Part shown: positions 3,048 through 35,584 of the stretch, one piece after another
How the letters are laid out: each line of letters starts with the position of its first letter
Numbering within the stretch: position 1 is the first letter of the stretch
DNA from: Anaerolineales bacterium
Lineage (GTDB): Bacteria; Chloroflexota; Anaerolineae; Anaerolineales; UBA6663
Length of the DNA: 35,584 nt
Direction: 5' to 3'
Assembly (NCBI GenBank): GCA_025057205.1
Contig: JANWXR010000003.1
Location: 1 to 35,584, forward strand
Translations under genes and position numbers: made by a program
Notes under the pieces: model-generated
Seen by the model: only the letters and a program-made list of their open reading frames with translations
Database searches by the model: none
Told to the model about the DNA's origin: nothing

Positions 3048-3182
3048 TTGGAGCGCTCATCGTATCCATCTCGCGTTTGTTTTTGCTTCACAGGTATGTG
3101 ATGCGACTTTTTGAGACCTTGGTTAAGGGTAATACGACTTTTTGAGATTTCAAGCAACTACTTATCCTCGGTAGGCCGCTAT

Positions 3183-4217
3183 ATGCACTTGGATGAAACC
3201 CAACGTCGCTGGCTGGTTATCGGCCTGGTCGCGCTGACGTTGACTATCTGTGGAGCCGGTGCGATCTTTGCCCTCGGCCCATTGTTCATCAACGCCGCGC
3301 TCGACCTGGAGCCAGTGCCAACGCTGGTCGGTGCGCTGCCCACTCCCACCTTCACCCATACGCTGCCCCCGCCCACTCCAGTCACCACCGGCACACTTGC
3401 GGGGCACGTCTGGCTGGATCGTTGCCCGCCCGGGCAGGAAGCCACTGCCCGCTGTCTAACCGACCCGAATGGCCGCGCGCGCGGCAACGGCCAGCTGGAG
3501 CCAGACGAGGTTGGGATCGGCGGCATTACGCTCAAACTCGGCGCCGGCCTGTGCCCGGCTACTGGCCTGGCTCAGGCCACCACCGCGCCCGACGGTGCCT
3601 TCCGCTTTGACAATCTGGTCCCTGGCGTGTACTGCGTGTTGATTGACCCGACAGAGAACGGCACGCTCACCACCGGCGACTGGACAGCTCCACTCCCCGA
3701 CGCTCGCAAGCGCGCTCTCCAGCAGGTTGAGGTCAAACTGGGCGAAACGACCATCGTCAACTTCGGCTGGGACGACACCGTGCCGCCGACGCCCACCATC
3801 ACCCCGACGCCGACCATTACGCCCACGCCCACCATCACGCCGACGTTCACGCGCACGCCGCGCCCGACGAGCACGCGCACACCGATCACACCGACCATCA
3901 CAAACACACCGACGGCCACGTTGACACATACGCCGACGCCCACCGGCAGCGTCACCGTTACGCCAACGCCGTCGCGCACCCTGACGCCTACGCCGGTGAC
4001 CGCAACAGCGACGGCCACAAGTTCGGCGACGACAACACTTACACCATCCGCCACCGGTACACCCACACCGACCTCTACTGCTTCGATGACGCCCACCACC
4101 ACCAATACGCCGACAGCAACGCCGACCCCAACAAATACGGCCTTGCCAACCGACACTCCAACTCCAACGGCCACAGCCACACCGACTGAGACTCCGACTC
4201 CCTCACCCACTCCGTAA
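3183..4217 (+). CDS. Membrane-anchored/secreted protein: SdrD B-like (Cna-B type) domain plus about 150-aa Thr/Pro-rich tail
   Basis: The internal ATG at 3183 precedes a TM/signal anchor ([25 protein letters not shown]). An SdrD-B-like pattern follows ([25 protein letters not shown]...[24 protein letters not shown]). The C-terminus is pure TP repeats ([18 protein letters not shown]...) that end the protein. Confidence 0.8.
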
Positions 4218-4408: not shown

Positions 4409-5890
4409 TCACCCACCCCGCTGATAGTTCGGCGCTTCGCGTGTGATCATCACACTATGCGGGTGGCTCTCGATCAGCCCGGCATGGGTGATGCGCGTCA
4501 GGCGCGTCTTCGTCCGCAGGTCTTCGAGCGTAGCCGCACCGGCGTAGCCCATGCCGGAGCGCAGCCCACCGACGAGTTGATAGATGGCGTCGCGCAGCGG
4601 GCCTTTGTACGGCACCAGCCCCTCCACTCCCTCCGGCACGAGTTTGTTGCCCCGGCCCTGCCCGCTCGCATAGCGGTCCTTGCCCAGGCCCTGCATCGCA
4701 CCCAGGCTGCCCATACCGCGATACTCCTTGTAGCGCTTGCCTTCGTATAGCACCACGTCGCCCGGCGCTTCGTCCAGGCCGGCCAGCAAGCCGCCGAGCA
4801 TCACCACCTCGGCGCCGGCCACAATTGCCTTGACGATGTCGCCGCTGTACTTGATGCCGCCGTCTGCCACTATCGGCACGCCACGCTTGCGCGCCGCGCG
4901 GGCGCACTCGAAGATGGCCGTCATCTGCGGCATGCCCGCGCCGGCGACGACGCGCGTGGTGCAGATGGAGCCGGCCCCCACGCCCACCTTGACCACGTCT
5001 GCGCCGGCCTCGATCAAGGCTTCGGTCCCTTCGGCGGTGACGACGTTGCCGGCGATGACCGGCAGCTTAGGCCAGGCGGTCTTGATGCGACGGAGGGCGC
5101 GCAGGACGCCAGCCGTATGCCCGTGCGCGGTATCCACGGCCACGGCGTCCACGCCGCGTTCCACCAGCAACTCCACACGCTGCTCAAGGTCGGCGCCCAC
5201 GCCCACCGCCGCCGCTACCAGCAGTCGCCCGCGCGCGTCGGTGGCCGCGTTCGGATAATCGCGCTTCTTTTGAATGTCCTTGACCGTAATCAGCCCCTTG
5301 AGCACGCCAGCCCCGTCCACCAGCGGCAGCTTCTCGATGCGATGCTGCTGTAGCAGGCTTTGCGCTTCTTCCAGCGTGGTGCCGACGGGCGCAGTGATGA
5401 GCGAGCCGTTGGTCATGAACTCGACCACCGGACGGTCAAGGTCCGACTGGGCGATGAAGCGGATATCGCGATTGGTGAGGATGCCCAGCAATTTTCCGGT
5501 GCCGCGTTCAGTGATGGGCACGCCGCTGATGTGATACTTCTCCATAATCTCCTCCGCCTCGCGCAAAGTGGCGGTCGGCGGCAAGGTCACCGGGTCTACG
5601 ATCATGCCGCTCTCGGAGCGTTTGACCTTTTCCACCTCGGCGGCCTGCTGTTCGGGGGTCAGGTTGCGATGAATGACGCCTAGCCCGCCCTCGCGCGCCA
5701 ACGCAATGGCCAACCGCGCCTCGGTCACGGTATCCATCGCCGCCGAGAGCACGGGGATGTTGAGGCGGATGTCGTCGGTCAGCCGGGCGCGCACGTCCAC
5801 GGCGTCGGGCAGCACTTCGCTGTAGCCGGGCACCACCAGCACATCGTCGAAGGTGAGCGATTCGAAGGTGTCAAAGAGTTTTTCATTCAT
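4409..5890 (-). CDS. guaB: IMP dehydrogenase
   Basis: 493 aa. It has the canonical N-terminus ([17 protein letters not shown]), a CBS pair and the catalytic loop [20 protein letters not shown]. Confidence 0.97.
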
Positions 5891-5900
5891 TGCCTGTCAC

Positions 5901-6482
5901 TCATTTCAAATAGGCATTTAGGGTCTCGACCAGGCGCCGGAAATAGGGTAGGTGTTGTTGCAACGTTGCCGGACTCAGACCTGCCAATACCTGAAAGGAG
6001 CGCTTACCCTTTCGATACTGCTGACCTGTTGCACGCTCCAGCGCCTCTTGCACCTCGTCGCGTTGTCGTCGTTCCAAATCGTTCAACGGGAGAAGTGCTC
6101 CCTCATTCAGTGCGCTTCCGAAAAACTCCCGCAACGCGGCGCGATCAGCCATCATCCACGTTTCCATGCAGGTGACCATGAACTGTGCCTGGTCATCAAC
6201 GGCGGCGGCGGGTCGCTCCCAGCCGTCATGCACCTGTAGGTGCTCCCAAGGCGTCCGCGTCACAGGAACTTCGCTGTCCACCAACAAAATAGCGGTCTTG
6301 CCGGAGTCCAGCAGGGCCGTTTTGAATCGGTCGAATGTCGCACGACGCCCACCGCCGGCCACAATACGCGGCATCCGCCCGCTGAAACCGGCCTTTTCCA
6401 GAAGTTTGCGGAAGCCCTCGCGGCAACGGCTATGTTCTTCGCTGCTATCCCCGCCGCCTTCCACGTAAAGATAAACGCTCAC
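5901..6482 (-). CDS. DUF4276-like protein with TOPRIM-like acidic motifs (candidate nuclease partner of the upstream ATPase)
   Basis: Preferred start is the GTG at 6482..6480, which overlaps the ATPase TGA (6481..6479) in the tetranucleotide GTGA. Motifs are VYLYVEGGGDS, AILLVDSE and CMETWMMAD. The family name is recalled from memory, not searched. It ends 10 nt before the guaB ATG. Confidence 0.7.
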   Translation of the reverse strand: MSVYLYVEGGGDSSEEHSRCREGFRKLLEKAGFSGRMPRIVAGGGRRATFDRFKTALLDSGKTAILLVDSEVPVTRTPWEHLQVHDGWERPAAAVDDQAQFMVTCMETWMMADRAALREFFGSALNEGALLPLNDLERRQRDEVQEALERATGQQYRKGKRSFQVLAGLSPATLQQHLPYFRRLVETLNAYLK

Positions 6483-7711
6483 CAGCGCGTGCCCCCTAAT
6501 TCGCCCCGCGTCCACAGCTCGCCCAACCGATAGTCTTTCAACCAGTGCGCCAGTTGTTCACTCTCAAGCCGTTTCATCACCGTCTGGCCACCGTGTTTTT
6601 CACAAACGACAACGGTTTCGGGATGCTCGGTGAGCGCGTCCACCAGCACATCGGAATGGGTCGTAACAATAAGCTGAGAGCGCTCGGAAGCCGCCAGCAT
6701 CAGGTCGGCCAATTTGGGAAGGATATCCGGATGCAGGCCGAGTTCCGGTTCTTCGATGCCGATGAGGGGCGGCGGCTCGGGGTCGCACAAAATGGCTAAC
6801 AGACACAGATAGCGCAAGGCGCCATCCGAAAGGCGCGTGGCGGGAATGATGTAATCGCTCTCGGTGAAAAAGACCTGTACCGTGCCGGCCTCCACGCTCA
6901 CGTCAAAATCGGTCAGGCCGTCGTAGAGGTCACGCAGCGCATCGAGCAACTCGCCTTTGGCTTTGGGATGGCGGCGCAAACGGTTGAGAAACAGCCCCAG
7001 ATTGGAAAAATCTTCCTCCAGCCGGTCGGTGCGCAGGTCGGCTTTCTGCGGTTCGCGAAAGACGGTGTTGCGGCCAAACGCCCACTCGCGGTACAAACGG
7101 ATATCGTCATAGGCGTCGGCTAGTTCCGTAATGACCGGATAGGTTTCGGGGTCACGGCGCTGGGCCAGGATAGACACATCCGGTTCTACGCTCTCGCGCG
7201 CCAGTTTCCGTTCGCCGCTGACAGGCGCGATGACGGGCTGACCCTGTTGGTAACGATAGTAAAAATAGGGTGTGGATTGGCCGGGGTACGGACGCTCATT
7301 TTCGATACGCTCATCTTCCAGCCGGAAGGTCTGTTGTTCGGAGCGAAAGGCCAGCACGTGGCGCAAAGGCTGGCGTCCGTGCGGGTTATCCACAATGACC
7401 TCGAGCGTCGCCACACCTTTGGGGTCGCCTTTCCAAATCCACTCACTGACCCCGCCTCCTCGTCCGATGACCGTACGCAGATCCTTAGGAGAGGCACGGT
7501 TGGGTGTGGCCTGCAAGAGCGCAATAGCTTCCAGGAGGTTCGATTTCCCGGAGCCGTTCGGGCCGATGAGGACATTGAGACCCTGTAATTCCAGCGGCGC
7601 AGTGTCCGGGCCGAACGAGAGCAGGCGCCTCATCGTGATGGCGTGCAGGAGGCGCCGGCCAGACCCGGTTGATTGCGGCAGGACTTTGCTGGAAAAAGGA
7701 AGTGTGGTCAT
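6479..7711 (-). CDS. ABC/SMC-like AAA ATPase (AAA_21/AAA_15 type)
   Basis: Walker A is LIGPNGSGKSNLLEA and the ABC-signature-like motif is LSDGALRYLCLL. Walker B/D-loop is PLIGIEEPELGLHPD and the H-loop is IVTTHSD. There is no transmembrane or substrate-binding partner. Confidence 0.85.
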   Translation of the reverse strand: MTTLPFSSKVLPQSTGSGRRLLHAITMRRLLSFGPDTAPLELQGLNVLIGPNGSGKSNLLEAIALLQATPNRASPKDLRTVIGRGGGVSEWIWKGDPKGVATLEVIVDNPHGRQPLRHVLAFRSEQQTFRLEDERIENERPYPGQSTPYFYYRYQQGQPVIAPVSGERKLARESVEPDVSILAQRRDPETYPVITELADAYDDIRLYREWAFGRNTVFREPQKADLRTDRLEEDFSNLGLFLNRLRRHPKAKGELLDALRDLYDGLTDFDVSVEAGTVQVFFTESDYIIPATRLSDGALRYLCLLAILCDPEPPPLIGIEEPELGLHPDILPKLADLMLAASERSQLIVTTHSDVLVDALTEHPETVVVCEKHGGQTVMKRLESEQLAHWLKDYRLGELWTRGELGGTRW

Positions 7712-7753: not shown

Positions 7754-8422
7754 TCAACGGTTTCTTCGGGCGCGCAGCTGCGCCAGGATTTCCGCCGGCA
7801 GGTTGAGGATCTCCCCGACCGTGAGCAGCGCATCCGGCTTCTCCCATAGCCACTCCACTTTGAGCCAGAAGCCGGGGATCAGGCGCGAATGGTAGATGCC
7901 GGCTTCCGGCTTGATCAGCTCGAACCGGCCCTGCGCATCGCGCTGATAGAAGAAGGCCCGCCGGCGGTCGGGGCGCGGGTCAATCACCCAATACTCCGGC
8001 ACGCCGCACTCCTGATACTCGACGAACTTCTCGTCGAGGTCGCGCGCGACGCTGTCGGCGGAGACGACCTCGATCACCACATCCGCCGGGCCTTCGATCC
8101 GCCGGTCGTTGGCCACGCGCGCCAGGTGCTCCGTAGCAACGAACACCACGTCCGGCTCGCGCGAGTTGCCATCCGGCCGGCAGCGCATCTCAATAGGCGC
8201 AGACCAAACCTGGCCCAATCCCAAGAAATCCGTGAACAACCCCAACAGCTTGGTCAAATAGGCGACCAGTGATTGATGTGTGATTGTCGGAGGCATATGC
8301 TCGATGATCTCCCCCTCCACCCATTCGACGAGGTGCGAGGACTGAGGCAGGGCCTGGTACTCTTCGTACGTTGCGCGCCGCCGCGCAAGCTCGGTCGGGA
8401 TTTCGATCACCTGCTCCGTCAT
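7754..8422 (-). CDS. Uma2 (DUF820) family PD-(D/E)xK endonuclease
   Basis: 222 aa. It shows the characteristic YEEY...EWVEGEII, PDVVFV and ADVVIEVVS motifs, plus YQECGVPEYWVIDP. Confidence 0.85.
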   Translation of the reverse strand: MTEQVIEIPTELARRRATYEEYQALPQSSHLVEWVEGEIIEHMPPTITHQSLVAYLTKLLGLFTDFLGLGQVWSAPIEMRCRPDGNSREPDVVFVATEHLARVANDRRIEGPADVVIEVVSADSVARDLDEKFVEYQECGVPEYWVIDPRPDRRRAFFYQRDAQGRFELIKPEAGIYHSRLIPGFWLKVEWLWEKPDALLTVGEILNLPAEILAQLRARRNR

Positions 8423-8471: not shown

Positions 8472-9986
<1,515 letters not shown>

Positions 9987-29076: not shown

Positions 29077-29529
29077 CTCTATACAAGTATGACGCGCCGG
29101 CCCCGGCCTCAGTGACGAGATCATACCAAATACCAAACGCTCCGCCGGTAAATTCATGTAAAATGGCGGCACTCCAACGCCGAAAGGAAAGACCATGACA
29201 AAACAATATGCCACGCCTCCGGCGCTCACGATTGACCCAACGAAGAAGTAGGTGCGTAGCGCCGCCCTGGTCGTACTCACTGCGCCCTTACTGTGACCCC
29301 GCCCTCCTGCCCGCATTGGCCGAGTTGGTGCACGACCCCGAACTGGAGGTACGCTACTCAGAGGCGCGAACCATTGGCTGGTGCTGGGAAATGCTGCAAG
29401 TGATTTACTGGACTCTGGCAAATGGAACTTTTGGTGCCAGACATAGCGGCTTGATGCTTTGCCTGACCGCCATATCTTGTGTCCGAGCCGGGATTTGCCA
29501 GACTCCAGTCAGTTATCTATCTCCCCCTT

Positions 29530-31509
29530 ATGCCCCACCGCTCCGTCCTCTATGAACTCATCGTGCACCTCGATACCGGCCAGTGGGGCGTCAGCGTCCC
29601 GTTGGATCAATCGCTCATTGGCCCGGTGAGCTACGGCTGGGATCGGTATCAGAAAGACCCCGAGTCGCTGACCTTCGGCGGCGGGCTGCTGGCCGGCTCA
29701 CCCCTGCCCGGCACACGACGGATGATCTTCTGCGGTTACTCGCCGCAGTGGGAGGACTTCTACGTCTCGGCTCTTGGCGGCGCCATGTATGTCATGCGCC
29801 GTCTCGGCGTGAACTATGTCTGGCTGCGTGGACGTGCGCCGGTGGACTCGGTGCTCCTCCTGAACTTGAAGAACGGCGAGTACAGCGTTCGCCTTGAGCC
29901 AATTGACGCGGACGCACTCTGGCGCGGCTATACTGATGCCACCGGGCGCACCTGGGAGGGCTTCTACGCACTGCAACAGGCGGTCTTTGAGAAATACAAG
30001 AGCAACTACGAAGGCGACTGGCTGCGCGTGCTGGCCGTCGGCCCGGCGGCACGCTACACCAAAGAAGGCGCCATCGGCAGCAGCCAGGTCAAGCGCGGCG
30101 TGCTCTCACACATTGACGACTGGGCCGGGCGCGGCGGCCTCGGCTCGCGGCTGCTGCAGCATCACCGCATCGCAGCCATCGTCTTCGGCGGCGACTGGCA
30201 AGACCCGGCGATGAGGGAAGGGAAGGAGCTGGACCAATACTTCCTCGAGCGCTTCGGCATGAAGGCTATTCAGGCCGACCTGATGCTGGCGGAGAAGTAC
30301 CGTTACGTTCCCAAGTTCCAGACCGGCGGCACTTTCGGCGTAAACATGCACACCGCCAACGACCGGCTGCTGGCCTTCAACTACCGTTCAATCTACGCGT
30401 CAGAAAAGGCGCGGCTTGACCTGCATGATAACTTTATCCTCGATCACTACCTCCGGCAATTCAACGAGGAGACCATCAGACCCAGGAACTTCGACCATTG
30501 CGGCGAACCATGTGCAGTAGCGTGTAAGAAGTTCTTTGGCGAGTACAAGAAGGACTACGAGCCATACGCCGCGCTGGGGCCGTTGTGCGGCGTCTTCGAC
30601 CAGCGCGCCGCCGAGCGGCTGAACAAGTATGTGGACACCATGGGCCTCGACGCAATCCAGGCGGGCGGCATGGTGGCTTGGATCATGGAATTGATTGCTG
30701 AGGGCCTGATCCCACCGGGAGACTTCGGGCTACCGGAGGACGGGCCAAGAGGGTTCACGTCCATCCGTGATAGAGGAACCGGGGGAGAGGGCCGACTGCC
30801 AACCCCTGCCGACTTCGATGTCGTCCGCGACTCTGCCCACAACGCCGATTACGCGATCGCCATCGTGAAGATGATTCTCTTCGACGAGCGCGGCGCTGTA
30901 TTCCGCCAGGGGATACGCGCTGCCGCCAAAACCCTCGACAGGCTTTACGGTATCAACAGCATAAACCGCACAGCCTATACCGCCCACGGCGCAACAGGCT
31001 GCATGGTTCCCAACCAGTACTGGACCCCGGGCATGCTCGCACCCATGCCGCTGATGGGCAAATACTTCTCCTTCTACGAAAACAAGTTCTACCCGCCGCG
31101 CGCGCTAGGGCGGAAGAACGTCGAGCGCTTCGTCTACGAATTGTATTCGGAGAACACCGGCGCTTGCCGCTTCCATCGCAAGTGGACGGAGGAGCTGATT
31201 GCTGAAATTGTGACTGCCCACTTCCTGCTGCCCGACCTCGACTACTGGCAGATGAACTTCAACCTGGCCAAAGCTATTCATGACCATCAGTCGGCGCGCG
31301 GCGTGATGTGGGAGAGCGAGCGGGTGGTAGACATGGTTTACGGGTTCCTGCAGAACTGGGAAATAGATGGCTTAAAGGAGCCGGAGTTGCTAGACTGGCT
31401 GGCCCGCTTCCGCCATGACAAATGGCAAGCCGCCCGCGACTTCTGGCAGGAGATGTATGCCGGTATGAGCGAGGCTTTCGCCGAAGGCTTCCCGGAGCCG
31501 AAACCCTGA
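29530..31509 (+). CDS. Divergent aldehyde:ferredoxin oxidoreductase (AOR) family paralogue
   Basis: The start is taken at ATG 29530 (MPHRSVLYELIVHLD). It is alignable with the canonical AOR at 32225-34048: GTRRMIF, SALGGAMYVMRRLG, WAGRGGLGS, DYEPYAALGP, DTMGLDAIQAG and TGACRF. The cluster motif is HCGEPCAVAC (C-x3-C-x3-C) instead of C-x2-C-x3-C, and SPLTG is replaced by SPQWE. Confidence 0.85.
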   Translation: MPHRSVLYELIVHLDTGQWGVSVPLDQSLIGPVSYGWDRYQKDPESLTFGGGLLAGSPLPGTRRMIFCGYSPQWEDFYVSALGGAMYVMRRLGVNYVWLRGRAPVDSVLLLNLKNGEYSVRLEPIDADALWRGYTDATGRTWEGFYALQQAVFEKYKSNYEGDWLRVLAVGPAARYTKEGAIGSSQVKRGVLSHIDDWAGRGGLGSRLLQHHRIAAIVFGGDWQDPAMREGKELDQYFLERFGMKAIQADLMLAEKYRYVPKFQTGGTFGVNMHTANDRLLAFNYRSIYASEKARLDLHDNFILDHYLRQFNEETIRPRNFDHCGEPCAVACKKFFGEYKKDYEPYAALGPLCGVFDQRAAERLNKYVDTMGLDAIQAGGMVAWIMELIAEGLIPPGDFGLPEDGPRGFTSIRDRGTGGEGRLPTPADFDVVRDSAHNADYAIAIVKMILFDERGAVFRQGIRAAAKTLDRLYGINSINRTAYTAHGATGCMVPNQYWTPGMLAPMPLMGKYFSFYENKFYPPRALGRKNVERFVYELYSENTGACRFHRKWTEELIAEIVTAHFLLPDLDYWQMNFNLAKAIHDHQSARGVMWESERVVDMVYGFLQNWEIDGLKEPELLDWLARFRHDKWQAARDFWQEMYAGMSEAFAEGFPEPKP

Positions 31510-32224: not shown

Positions 32225-34048
32225 TTACGGGATGTCGAGTTCCTTCAGCTTGCTCTCCGGAACGACGCCGTTCTCCCAGCCGCGCGCCTTGTAGTACTCT
32301 TCCAACATCAGGTCGAGTTCGCAGACGTGGCCCTTTGAACCGGCCATGGTCGAAGGCTCGGTGGTAAAGCGCTTGGGCAGATAGTCCGAGCCTTCACGGA
32401 AGCCAGCCAGATTGTTGTAGTAGCGCTCCAGGTTGTAGATGCGCTCGCCGCTCTTCAGCACATCATCCGCCGTGAAGGGCACGCCGACAATGGCGGAGTA
32501 TTGCTGCGCATACTCCTCGGCGCCCTCGGCGAAGGCGCTGAACTTACACAGGTCGAGGCTGTCCGAGAAGGCGTGCACGTCCTGGAAGACCTTGGTCAGC
32601 TCGCCCTTGCCCTTCCAGGCCAGCGGGTCCACTTTGAGCGAGCCGAAGGGCATCACGCCCAGTTCCGCTGCTGGGGTGTAGGCGCGCAGGTGACAGGCGC
32701 CGCGGTTGCTGGTGGCGTAGGCGATGCCCATGCCCTTCAGCCCGCGCGGATCGTAGGCGGGGACGCCCTGGCCCTTGACCGTCATGGCGATCTCCGGATG
32801 GCCGAAGTATTTGGCAACCGCGTCCGCGCCATCCGCCAGGATGTTGCCGAAGCCTTCGCGTAGCGCGATCTTGCGCACGGCTTCCACCATGCCGAAAATA
32901 TCGCCCCACCTCAGACTGCCGGAGCCGTCGGTCCAGCCCTTCTCGGTGGCCTCCATCCACACCCCGAGCGGGTGGCCGGTCTCGATGGCATCCAGACCGT
33001 AATCGTTGCACAGGTCAATCATCTTGGCGACCGTGGCCACATCGTTATTGCCCAGGTTCGCGCCCAACGACCAGGCCGGCTCATACTCCACGCTCTCCAT
33101 GCGCAGGCCCTTCCATGGCCCTTCTTTGATCTCGACCTCCTTCTTGCAAGCCACCGGGCAGGCGTGACAAGTCGGGTCATCCACGAGGAGATGCTCCTTG
33201 ACGTACTCGCCGCTGATCTTCTCGGCGTCCGCGCCGAAGGAGGTCAGCATGCTGTTCTTGGTCGGCAGGGCACCCATGTTGCTGGTGATGTTCATGAGCA
33301 CATTGGTGCCGTAAACCGAGAGGCCGCCCTTGCGCGGGCTGGTGATGTTTTCCGGCGCCATGATCGCCTTGAGGGCGCGCTCGTGCGCTGCCTTCCAGGC
33401 ATCCTTGTCGGCGGGCTTGGGCATCTTCTTCTCGGCCTTAATGACAATGGCCTTGAGCTTCTTGCTGCCGCCCACGCAGCCGGTGCCACCGCGGCCCGAG
33501 GCGCGGTCGTTCTCGTTCACCCAGCAGGCGAACTTCACCAGGTTCTCGCCGGCCGGGCCGATGGCGATGACGGTCAGATCCTTCTCGCCGTACTTCTGCT
33601 GGAAGTGCTTGACCGTGTCGTGCACACCTTTGCCCCAGACCTCGGAAGCATCGTGTAATTCAACGACTCCGTCATGGACATAGGCATACACTGGCTTTTC
33701 CGACTTGCCCTTGAAGATGAGGCCATCGAAGCCTGCCCAGCGCAGGCGCGCCGCGCTCCAGCCGCCATGATGGCTGTCGGTGACGGTGCCGGTGAGCGGT
33801 GACTTGGTGACGATGGCCATGCGGCCGCTCAGATTAGCTTCGGTGCCGGTGAGCGGCCCGTTCATGAAACACAACAGGTTGTCCGGGCCAAGCGGGTCTA
33901 CCTGCGGCCCAGCCTCGAAGACATAGCGGACTCCCAGACCGCGCCCGCCGATGTACTTCCGCTTCCAGTCTTCTGGAATGGGCTTGTATTCCACCGTTCC
34001 GGCGGACAGGTCAATGTGGCCAATTCGATCAGCGTAACCTCCAAGCAT
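32225..34048 (-). CDS. aor: Aldehyde:ferredoxin oxidoreductase (tungstopterin enzyme family)
   Basis: The start is taken at ATG 34048 (MLGGYADRIGHIDLS), preceded by a GAGGAGG SD. Motifs include SPLTG, ASGRGGTG, DPTCHACPVAC (4Fe-4S Cys), EYEPAWSLG, CNDYGLDAIETG and DSLDLCKF. Confidence 0.93.
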   Translation of the reverse strand: MLGGYADRIGHIDLSAGTVEYKPIPEDWKRKYIGGRGLGVRYVFEAGPQVDPLGPDNLLCFMNGPLTGTEANLSGRMAIVTKSPLTGTVTDSHHGGWSAARLRWAGFDGLIFKGKSEKPVYAYVHDGVVELHDASEVWGKGVHDTVKHFQQKYGEKDLTVIAIGPAGENLVKFACWVNENDRASGRGGTGCVGGSKKLKAIVIKAEKKMPKPADKDAWKAAHERALKAIMAPENITSPRKGGLSVYGTNVLMNITSNMGALPTKNSMLTSFGADAEKISGEYVKEHLLVDDPTCHACPVACKKEVEIKEGPWKGLRMESVEYEPAWSLGANLGNNDVATVAKMIDLCNDYGLDAIETGHPLGVWMEATEKGWTDGSGSLRWGDIFGMVEAVRKIALREGFGNILADGADAVAKYFGHPEIAMTVKGQGVPAYDPRGLKGMGIAYATSNRGACHLRAYTPAAELGVMPFGSLKVDPLAWKGKGELTKVFQDVHAFSDSLDLCKFSAFAEGAEEYAQQYSAIVGVPFTADDVLKSGERIYNLERYYNNLAGFREGSDYLPKRFTTEPSTMAGSKGHVCELDLMLEEYYKARGWENGVVPESKLKELDIP

Positions 34049-34092
34049 AGAAGCCTCCTCTAAGGTGTGGAGTGTGGGGTGAATTAAACACA

Positions 34093-34125
34093 ACAGGCGT
34101 TATGCTCACAGTGCGCAACGCCTGT
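34093..34125 (-). promoter_or_regulatory. Hairpin in the AOR 5' leader (attenuator candidate)
   Basis: ACAGGCGTT-15 nt-AACGCCTGT is a 9-bp stem. On the minus strand it is followed by UGUGUUUAAUUC, about 30 nt upstream of the SD. Confidence 0.3.
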
Positions 34126-35037: not shown

Positions 35038-35584
35038 TTACGACAGAGCATAGCCGCAATGAGCGAACCATCCCCGGATGTCTTGGCGCGAGATCGAGCG
35101 GAAAGCATCGGCCAGGGCATCCAGCAGCGCGTCGAGCGTGCGGGCCTTGGCCGCCCGCAGCGCCGCCTTGACCTTCGACCAGCACTGCTCGATCGGGTTC
35201 AGGTCGGGCGAGTAGGGTGGCAAGAACTCCAGCCGTGCCCCCCGCGCTTCAATCAACTCGACCACGCGTGGGCTCTTGTGCGCCTTCAAGTTATCCAGCA
35301 CGACAATGTCGCCTGCGCGCAAGGTCGGGGCCAAGATGTGTTCGACGTACCCTTCGAAGGTGGCCGTATTCATCGCGCCTTCGATCACCCACGGGGCCGT
35401 CAATCCGCGCCCGCCCAGGGCGGCCACGACGGTGTAGTGCGCGCCGGAGACCCCCGGCGTCCCTTCGACCACGCGCTCGCCCGGGGCGGCCCGGCCGTAC
35501 AGGCGCGTCAGCCCCAGATTCACCCCGAATTCATCGAGAAAGCGCAAGCGAGGCTGCCGCTTGGCCCATTCGTTTTTCACCTTT
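35038..35584 (-). mobile_element. IS630/Tc1-mariner family transposase, DDE_3 domain (5' part beyond the window end)
   Basis: The sequence is FLDEFGVNLGLTRLYGRAPGERV...IVVLDNLKAHKSPRVVELIEARGARLEFLPPYSPDLNPIEQCWSKVK. The ORF is open to the window edge. Confidence 0.85.

Follow-up and report, generated by a model that had tools for sequence, protein, structure and literature searches.

A HEC-01-type ABC ATPase and DUF4276 gene pair inserted between purH and guaB in an Anaerolineales bacterium

HEC-01 (Hma-embedded candidate 01) is a candidate defence family in which an ATP-binding cassette (ABC) ATPase is accompanied by a TOPRIM protein; it was described as embedded in Hma systems, with a conserved metal site like that of OLD (Payne et al., bioRxiv 10.1101/2024.01.29.577857). 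It is reported to be one of the commonest candidate systems of environmental genomes (PMC12881386). Gene pairs of similar composition occur in other defence systems. The paper on PARIS adds AbiL and MADS3-4 to the ABC ATPase/TOPRIM nuclease systems and has DUF4276 among its annotation domains (PMC11464382), and the Menshen study places DUF4276 in the Toprim superfamily, as it does RloB, and identifies Mad4 as homologous to DUF4276 (PMC12065111). In MADS, strains without mad3 or mad4 are impaired in defence, and deletion of the mad5 methylase requires that mad2 or mad3 be deleted too. Here we analyze a pair of overlapping genes, encoding an ABC ATPase and a small DUF4276 protein, found in a 35,584-nucleotide (nt) stretch of DNA from an Anaerolineales bacterium of the phylum Chloroflexota (contig JANWXR010000003.1 of assembly GCA_025057205.1, positions 1 to 35,584), referred to below as the window. 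Our preferred reading, to which we assign a probability of roughly 0.7, is that the pair belongs to the HEC-01 family of candidate defence systems and constitutes an ATP-gated Toprim nuclease module, which was inserted at the purH-guaB junction and has since been inherited vertically. An earlier, sequence-based proposal (the original prediction) had described the pair as a split OLD/PARIS-like candidate defence module whose effector family was not known to have been characterized experimentally. Its logic was correct, yet already published, because HEC-01, MADS3-4 and the Toprim assignment of DUF4276 are all in the literature; the statement about the effector family is out of date for the same reason. 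The pair itself comprises the following features.

6479..7711, minus strand: HEC-01A-type ABC ATPase, 410 amino acids (aa); from the open reading frame, Pfam, PADLOC, AlphaFold2 (AF2) and Foldseek
5901..6482, minus strand: HEC-01B-type DUF4276 protein, 193 aa, predicted Toprim-fold metal-dependent nuclease; from Pfam, PADLOC and AF2
6479..6482, minus strand: GTGA overlap of the DUF4276 GTG start and the ATPase TGA stop; from reading of the sequence

Both proteins are matched by PADLOC profiles of HEC-01, an assignment as a defence candidate that is independent of the original prediction. Profile HEC-01A (PDLC04177) aligned with residues 20-410 of the ATPase over model positions 3-393 of 393 (5.8e-170, 563 bits), and profile HEC-01B (PDLC04201) aligned with the small protein over model positions 2-198 of 202 (6.1e-65). 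All eight PADLOC matches of the small protein were to HEC-01B.

All ABC/SMC-type motifs quoted in the original prediction can be read in the translation of the ATPase gene: Walker A, GPNGSGKSN, at residues 50-58; the signature LSDGALRY at residues 294-301; the Walker B/D-loop, IGIEEPELGLHP, at residues 317-328; and the H-loop, TTHSD, at residues 350-354. The Q-loop glutamine is probably Q222. Pfam matches were to AAA_21 (6e-38), AAA_15 and SMC_N, and the AF2 model (predicted local distance difference test score, pLDDT, 79.7) retrieved SMC heads, Rad50, Septu/retron PtuA and Thermus OLD (6p74) in Foldseek searches at E of about 1e-12. The protein is an SMC/Rad50-type ABC ATPase of the non-transporter kind. 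We considered and rejected a role as an ABC-transporter subunit: the ABC_tran profile scored 18.7 bits against a cutoff of 25, the neighbours are purH, a Uma2 gene and guaB, and no transporter genes lie near the ATPase within the window, in agreement with the earlier remark on the missing transporter context. In an NCBIfam scan, all matches of the ATPase were far under cutoff, and no housekeeping family was matched.

In the database, the ATPase gene is called from M27 onwards (P0121, 384 aa). We rejected this start, since the first strand of the fold would be lost. Translation is likely to begin at the ATG at 7711, and the 410-aa model is the better one, because the predicted strand 1 spans residues 22-28 and no additional start codon occurs between residues 1 and 27. 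Starting from this ATG, the ATPase carries a disordered N-terminal tail of 17 residues. A second region deserves mention. Residues 210-238, which hold the probable Q-loop Gln222, are almost invariant across phyla; residues 210-235 of this segment (EWAFGRNTVFREPQKADLRTDRLEEDFSNLGL; window positions 7007-7084, minus strand) are modelled as disordered and form the sole internal stretch with pLDDT below 50. This segment could be a partner- or ligand-binding element that becomes ordered only in a complex.

The small protein contains, in its translation, the motifs VYLYVEGGGDS, AILLVDSE and CMETWMMAD. DUF4276 is the sole Pfam family that it matches (1.8e-11, 45 bits against a cutoff of 30.2), so the recognition of a DUF4276-like protein from the letters alone was right; no NCBIfam model matched. 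A mechanical list of open reading frames opens this gene at an upstream GTG (6515, 204 aa). We rejected that start, the extension being the ATPase C-terminus in another frame. The 193-aa start within the GTGA is the real one, because the HEC-01B profile aligns from residue 12 of the 204-aa frame and because homologues begin 1-3 residues ahead of the VxxYVEGGGD strand.

The AF2 model of the DUF4276 protein (pLDDT 96, predicted template modelling score, pTM, 0.91) has the order β1 (2-7)-α1-β2 (39-42)-α2-β3 (62-69)-α3-β4 (99-102)-α4, followed by a helical C-terminal part in which K158 sits. Strands 1 and 3 have E8 and D69-S70-E71, respectively, at their ends, and strand 4 is followed by E107 and D113. 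The model thus contains the four-stranded parallel sheet, the Glu after strand 1 and the acidic motif after strand 3 by which a Toprim fold is recognized, the last of these being D-x-E and not the D-x-D of Toprim. The top three PDB matches in Foldseek (6njv, 6nk8 and 6njw) are C-terminal Toprim regions of class 2 OLD proteins from Xanthomonas and Burkholderia, with probabilities of 0.90-0.98, TM-scores up to 0.53 and about 217 aligned columns; Thermus OLD is also in the match list, lower down. Among the viral models of BFVD, the single good match is a RloB-like phage protein (probability 0.96).

Residue conservation agrees with this picture. In 46 close homologues, E8, G9-G11, D69, S70, E71, E107, W109 and D113 are invariant. 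When 106 diverse homologues (33-58% identity) are compared, E8, G9 and D69 are invariant, and S70, E71, E107, W109, D113, R21, R46, W79, H81 and K158 are at least 90% conserved. The motifs that had been taken for a TOPRIM-type metal site therefore fall on the most conserved columns of the family and, by Foldseek, within a Toprim/OLD-like fold. In the model, the conserved acidic residues occupy the canonical Toprim positions; E8, D69-S70-E71, E107 and D113 are candidate active-site residues.

The two genes are physically joined. Read on the minus strand, the ATPase gene ends with TGG (W410, 6484-6482) and TGA (6481-6479), and the GTG at 6482-6480 opens V-S-V-Y-L-Y-V-E-G-G-G-D. The overlap is exactly where the original prediction had placed it, and its arrangement is of a type typical of translational coupling. 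The same arrangement is found elsewhere: the stop of the ATPase gene overlaps the start of the DUF4276 gene in 78/78 assessable non-redundant loci of other organisms, by a 4-nt NTGA in 62, by 7 nt in 15 and by 1 nt in one. The ATPase gene lies directly upstream of the DUF4276 gene in 84 of 86 fetched loci, the two exceptions being a contig end and the insertion of an insertion sequence (IS). Conservation of the gene neighbourhood, which had been put forward as a check, is thus borne out, and we conclude that the two genes form an obligate unit.

In a database clustered at 90%, the DUF4276 protein had 1,535 matches and the ATPase more than 8,000; with clustering at 50%, 2,256 DUF4276 cluster representatives were found at E up to 0.001. 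The distribution of the pair is patchy, with at least 526 loci, a lower bound derived from narrow peptide patterns, in the genomes of 185,579 species. Its bacterial range takes in Chloroflexota, Planctomycetota, Acidobacteriota, Syntrophobacteraceae, Bacteroidota, Actinomycetota, Bacillota and a cyanobacterium, and its archaeal range Methanothrix, Methanoregula and Methanoculleus.

In the window, the pair and the gene next to it are flanked by two genes of nucleotide synthesis, and the site is described by the following features.

8472..9986, minus strand: purH, upstream boundary of the insertion site; its homologue in a related hot-spring contig (L001) matches AICARFT_IMPCHas
7754..8422, minus strand: Uma2-family gene, putative PD-(D/E)xK endonuclease, directly upstream of the pair; Pfam Uma2 5.6e-31, PADLOC candidate PDC-S03 3e-26
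4409..5890, minus strand: guaB, downstream boundary of the insertion site; starts 10 nt past the DUF4276 stop
4400-4368: strong terminator-like hairpin 3' of guaB

A scan of metagenomes with guaB yielded 80 related loci (64-84% identity), and the pair is present in none of them. Full-length purH lies directly upstream of guaB in 23 of the 53 loci that have at least 1.5 kb of upstream sequence; the gap between the two genes is 12-657 nt, mostly below 120 nt, and these 23 loci include nearly all those with guaB identity of 78% or more. The state in which purH directly precedes guaB is the empty site. Two contigs from hot springs, L001 and L002, have the order purH-ATPase-DUF4276-guaB, without Uma2, and their proteins are 78-88% identical to those of the window. 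Between the window and L001, the ratio of nonsynonymous to synonymous substitution rates (dN/dS) is 0.13 for the ATPase and 0.16 for the DUF4276 protein, compared with 0.12-0.22 for guaB, purH and pyrD, and dS is similar for the pair and its flanks (0.57-0.77). The shared site, the dN/dS values and the flank-like dS together indicate that the pair was acquired before the lineages of the window and L001 split and was then kept by selection.

A different state is seen in the closest genome (L074; Anaerolineales SKYGB_hs_bin36, a hot-spring metagenome-assembled genome with guaB 96-97% identical). There, the DUF4276 gene is broken near residue 86 by an IS1595-like transposase (positions 1-1157 of L074). 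The transposase has a zinc-ribbon N-terminus and an ISXO2-like domain and is joined in frame to the final 108 DUF4276 codons; the contig ends inside the IS. The pair is, as this disruption demonstrates, dispensable. Together with its absence from the 80 guaB-related loci, the IS-cut allele means that the locus does not harbour the uniformly present housekeeping pair that had been named in advance as a finding against a defence module.

Base composition points in the same direction. The GC content of the two genes is 58.4% and 59.5%, against 63-69% for guaB, purH, Uma2 and pyrD. The original prediction had the direction of this contrast right and overstated its size. A clearer signal comes from GC content at third codon positions (GC3). 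The flanking genes have values of 0.80-0.88, and 24 genes of the window give 0.78 +/- 0.07, against 0.63 and 0.69 for the pair; this deviation is consistent with a foreign origin. We conclude that the pair was inserted at the purH-guaB junction as a two-gene cassette, in line with the acquisition of these two genes alone that had been suggested from GC counts. No flanking repeats, integrase or tRNA were found as marks of the insertion; the search for flanking direct or inverted repeats returned short matches only, of a kind often due to chance. The Uma2 gene has a history of its own. In another locus (L088, 478-1140) a Uma2 gene that is 64% identical stands alone directly upstream of guaB, and Uma2 is not found beside the pair in 80 genome loci. 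It is a separate small insertion at the same junction and not a conserved partner of the pair. Since Uma2 is alone in L088 and missing from L001 and L002, the junction has taken up small accessory genes independently more than once.

The cassette lies in a minus-strand cluster of nucleotide-biosynthesis genes that consists, in order, of a DHOase-like gene, pyrB, a pyrF/pyrE fusion, pyrD, purH, Uma2, the pair and guaB. All are in the same orientation, and the intergenic gaps flanking the cassette measure 10-42 nt. A terminator scan found the sole strong terminator-like hairpin of the region 3' of guaB and no terminator-like site with a strong stem between purH and guaB; inside the cassette, promoter and terminator scans gave nothing exceeding shuffled expectation. 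The pair is probably co-transcribed with its neighbours. An Rfam scan of the window returned no RNA family.

Some further features of the window lie outside the cluster. At 3111-4217 on the plus strand lies an open reading frame whose long C-terminal half is of low complexity and rich in Thr and Pro (TPTPT... repeats); the frame also shows a weak SdrD_B-like domain. Its product is probably secreted or exposed at the cell surface, and a spurious Gly/Val-rich frame is read on the other strand. Two genes of the aldehyde:ferredoxin oxidoreductase family lie close together, at 29479-31509 (plus strand) and 32225-34093 (minus strand), one canonical (AFOR_C 7e-127) and one divergent (AFOR_C 2.6e-17). 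The single mobile-element gene seen in the window is a DDE_3 transposase frame (35038-35580, minus strand, 2.5e-33), which starts 4 bases from the window end and about 27 kb from the pair.

To see the company kept by the pair elsewhere, we identified, for 71 homologous pairs, the closest gene on either side (downstream counts are out of 70). Defence-type upstream neighbours were HsdS, the Type I specificity subunit (5/71), and SNF2/DpdE-like helicases (3); downstream, HsdR, the Type I restriction subunit, was found 3-4 times in 70, and AbiEi once. In all, about 10% of the homologous pairs are embedded in Type I restriction-modification (R-M) operons. We infer, from the rarity of hsdS and not from a computed background rate, that this proportion far exceeds random placement. 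The single match in IMG/VR (L167, 1793-14452) is a BREX type 1-like operon with the order BrxC-[HEC-01A-HEC-01B]-PglX-[HEC-02A-HEC-02B]-BrxH, a clear example of two candidate systems embedded in one operon.

From these data we infer a defence role for the pair and a complex between its two products. The SMC-head-like ABC ATPase would act as a nucleotide-dependent sensor or regulator and the DUF4276 Toprim protein as a metal-dependent nuclease effector, which the ATPase would hold or gate by analogy with PARIS, OLD and MADS3-4; translational coupling suits a defined complex of this kind. A cue tied to infection or to foreign DNA would shift the state of the ATPase, which would then release or activate the nuclease, as AriA does with AriB or as the ATPase domain does in OLD/GajA. 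The Toprim site (E8, D69/E71, E107/D113) would cut nucleic acid, either DNA or tRNA, and the cleavage would stop the invader or the infected cell. Since its insertion, the cassette has been inherited vertically under purifying selection in this lineage of Anaerolineae (Chloroflexota).

Several observations weigh against this interpretation. The window contains no defence island: the pair has pyr/pur genes as neighbours, with Uma2 as the one further candidate. In other genomes, about 85-90% of homologous pairs adjoin housekeeping genes outside defence islands (GluRS/GlnRS, 6; inositol monophosphatase, 6; UbiA, 5; RecJ, 4; PEPCK, 4). The subfamily was not found by tblastn in 72,556 plasmid records or in 50,697 phage records, and it occurs on 1 of 2.9 million IMG/VR contigs. 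Phage data, obtained with two other members of the family, conflict. A HEC-01 representative gave E. coli no protection against the BASEL and classic coliphages (bioRxiv 10.1101/2024.01.29.577857), whereas Han et al. (Nat Commun 2026, PMC12881386) report that HEC-01 from a cold seep shielded E. coli B from one or more of the phages T7, T5 and T4; their text gives no magnitude. The ATPase is more conserved than its partner (mean identity to the window proteins 65% vs 56%, in 70 of 78 loci), unlike sensors engaged in an arms race with phage proteins. As to the effector, the Foldseek E values of its OLD Toprim matches are only 0.01-0.05, and a PDB sequence-profile search with the DUF4276 alignment gave nothing significant (best E 0.16, unrelated proteins); the Toprim relation is therefore visible at the fold level only. 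Finally, the DUF4276 protein of the window, like those of L001 and L074, is without a 5-residue 'RxCGR' loop around residue 152. The Cys of this loop is at least 90% conserved in close homologues; the window protein keeps C20 and C105, which in other members might form a metal or redox site with the Cys of the loop.

Three other explanations have to be weighed against the HEC-01 defence reading, and each is less well supported. The pair might be a selfish, toxin-antitoxin (TA)-like addiction cassette, in which the ATPase restrains a Toprim toxin, which persists because its loss does harm and which has no dedicated anti-phage role. This would suit a compact two-gene unit with an obligate stop/start overlap that is spread over bacterial and archaeal phyla, mostly among housekeeping genes without other defence genes, and it would accommodate the one negative phage test; Pfam, moreover, calls AAA_21 'putative AbiEii toxin, Type IV TA system', and one PDB entry labels AriA 'antitoxin'. 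Yet plasmids, where addiction modules thrive, are not where the pair is found, and the copies inside R-M and BREX operons, like the positive phage test, favour defence. The IS of L074 strikes the putative toxin gene and is hence uninformative on addiction, and TA-like behaviour and abortive-infection defence can coexist. We consider an addiction cassette unlikely. A dependent accessory of methylation-based immunity (R-M, BREX or Hma), akin to Mad3-Mad4, is quite unlikely in our view; the window copy would then be an orphan, largely or wholly inactive by itself. The discovery of HEC-01 within Hma systems, the roughly 10% of loci in Type I R-M operons and the BREX locus L167 are what one would expect of such an accessory, as are the need for mad3 and mad4 in MADS defence, the dependence of mad5 deletion on loss of mad2 or mad3, and the study in which stand-alone HEC-01 gave no defence. 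On the other hand, about 85-90% of pairs stand alone, the stand-alone window copy has been under purifying selection since its split from L001, a HEC-01 cluster by itself protected E. coli B, and the NCBIfam MAD3 model reaches 79 of the 420 bits required, with no mad4 match.

We regard as very unlikely a role of the pair in housekeeping nucleic-acid maintenance, that is, in DNA repair or RNA processing in the manner of RecF/Rad50-type ATPases or the Toprim RNase M5, with expression alongside the nucleotide-biosynthesis genes. The site is empty of the pair in 80 relatives, the closest genome, L074, carries an IS-disrupted copy, distribution is patchy (at least 526 loci in 185,579 species genomes), GC3 departs from that of the flanks, homologues are embedded in Type I R-M and BREX operons, and no NCBIfam housekeeping family matches. 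These findings outweigh what such a role would otherwise explain: the common orientation and 10-42 nt gaps within the pyr/pur cluster with no strong-stem terminator from purH to guaB, purifying selection equal to that on the flanks, the high conservation of the ATPase across domains, and the presence of RecJ and aminoacyl-tRNA synthetases among its neighbours elsewhere.

If the HEC-01 defence reading holds, the nature of the cue can be considered. The high conservation of the ATPase sequence weakly favours a conserved cue over a variable phage protein. A more specific version, in which HEC-01 ATPases respond to a signal common to all cells (collapse of the nucleotide pool, free DNA ends or lost methylation-based immunity, for example) and not to a fast-evolving phage protein, we hold to be unlikely. 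It would explain why the ATPase is more conserved than the nuclease across bacteria and archaea, why the 210-238 segment is almost invariant although modelled as disordered, and how the pair could survive for long as a stand-alone unit in housekeeping operons such as the pyr/pur cluster.

The locus matters for an abundant candidate family of environmental genomes in which phage data are in conflict. It constitutes a natural experiment with four states, namely a dated insertion, empty sites in relatives, a sister lineage in which the pair is kept under purifying selection and an IS-disrupted allele; the stand-alone pair is therefore functional but dispensable. It also supplies defined constructs and mutants for work on a minimal module of an ABC ATPase and a 193-aa Toprim protein.

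How, then, does the pair compare with named systems? In PARIS, too, an ABC ATPase of the AAA_15/21 type and a Toprim effector are encoded by separate genes. The AriA (AAA_21) profile PDLC02980 does match the ATPase (residues 45-358, 3e-40), over the same 304 model positions as Pfam AAA_21, and looks generic; the HEC-01A profile scores far above it, and AriA is among the weak PDB sequence matches. The effectors differ: AriB is a DUF4435 protein of about 35 kDa, that of the pair is a DUF4276 protein of about 193 aa, and no AriB profile matched. PARIS is typically carried in viral genomes, and both its trigger, Ocr, and its substrate, tRNA-Lys, are known (PMC11464382), whereas the subfamily of the pair is essentially missing from phage and plasmid records. 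With OLD and GajA the resemblance is structural, the DUF4276 model matching the C-terminal Toprim of class 2 OLD and the ATPase model matching Thermus OLD (6p74). In those proteins, however, ATPase and Toprim form one polypeptide, in contrast to the two separate frames seen here; there is no Pfam Toprim_OLD match, the PADLOC Old match is weak (2e-14) and confined to the C-terminal part of the ATPase, and a UvrD/GajB partner is missing.

In MADS, Mad3-Mad4 is likewise an ABC ATPase with a DUF4276-family protein (PMC12065111, PMC11464382), and genetics link that pair to defence and mad3 to self-toxicity. The NCBIfam MAD3 score of 79.4 bits lies far from the equivalog cutoff of 420, no mad4 profile matched, and the window has none of mad1, mad2 and mad5-8, of which mad6-8 are mandatory and mad5 is the methylase. 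AbiL (the AbiLi ATPase with AbiLii/RloB) and Menshen (NsnB with DUF4276-type NsnC variants) also combine, as the pair does, an ABC ATPase with a small protein of the Toprim superfamily, and a RloB-like protein is the best BFVD match of the DUF4276 model; the ATPase profile matches are weak (AbiLi, 5e-20; NsnB, 3.5e-15), and neither AbiLii nor NsnA/NsnC matched. On profile scores and missing partner genes, we reject membership in PARIS, OLD/Gabija, MADS, AbiL and Menshen.

The comparison with HEC-01 comes out differently. The two-gene architecture is the same, and the profiles HEC-01A and HEC-01B align with the two proteins over nearly their whole length. Their genes are adjacent and on the same strand, with a 4-nt GTGA overlap. 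The window copy shows no structural difference from the family; it stands alone in a pyr/pur cluster instead of being embedded in an Hma system, and its DUF4276 protein is without the 5-residue Cys loop. Homologues of the pair occur within operons of R-M and BREX, in keeping with the definition of the family. The pair is thus a new member of HEC-01, and not a new kind of system.

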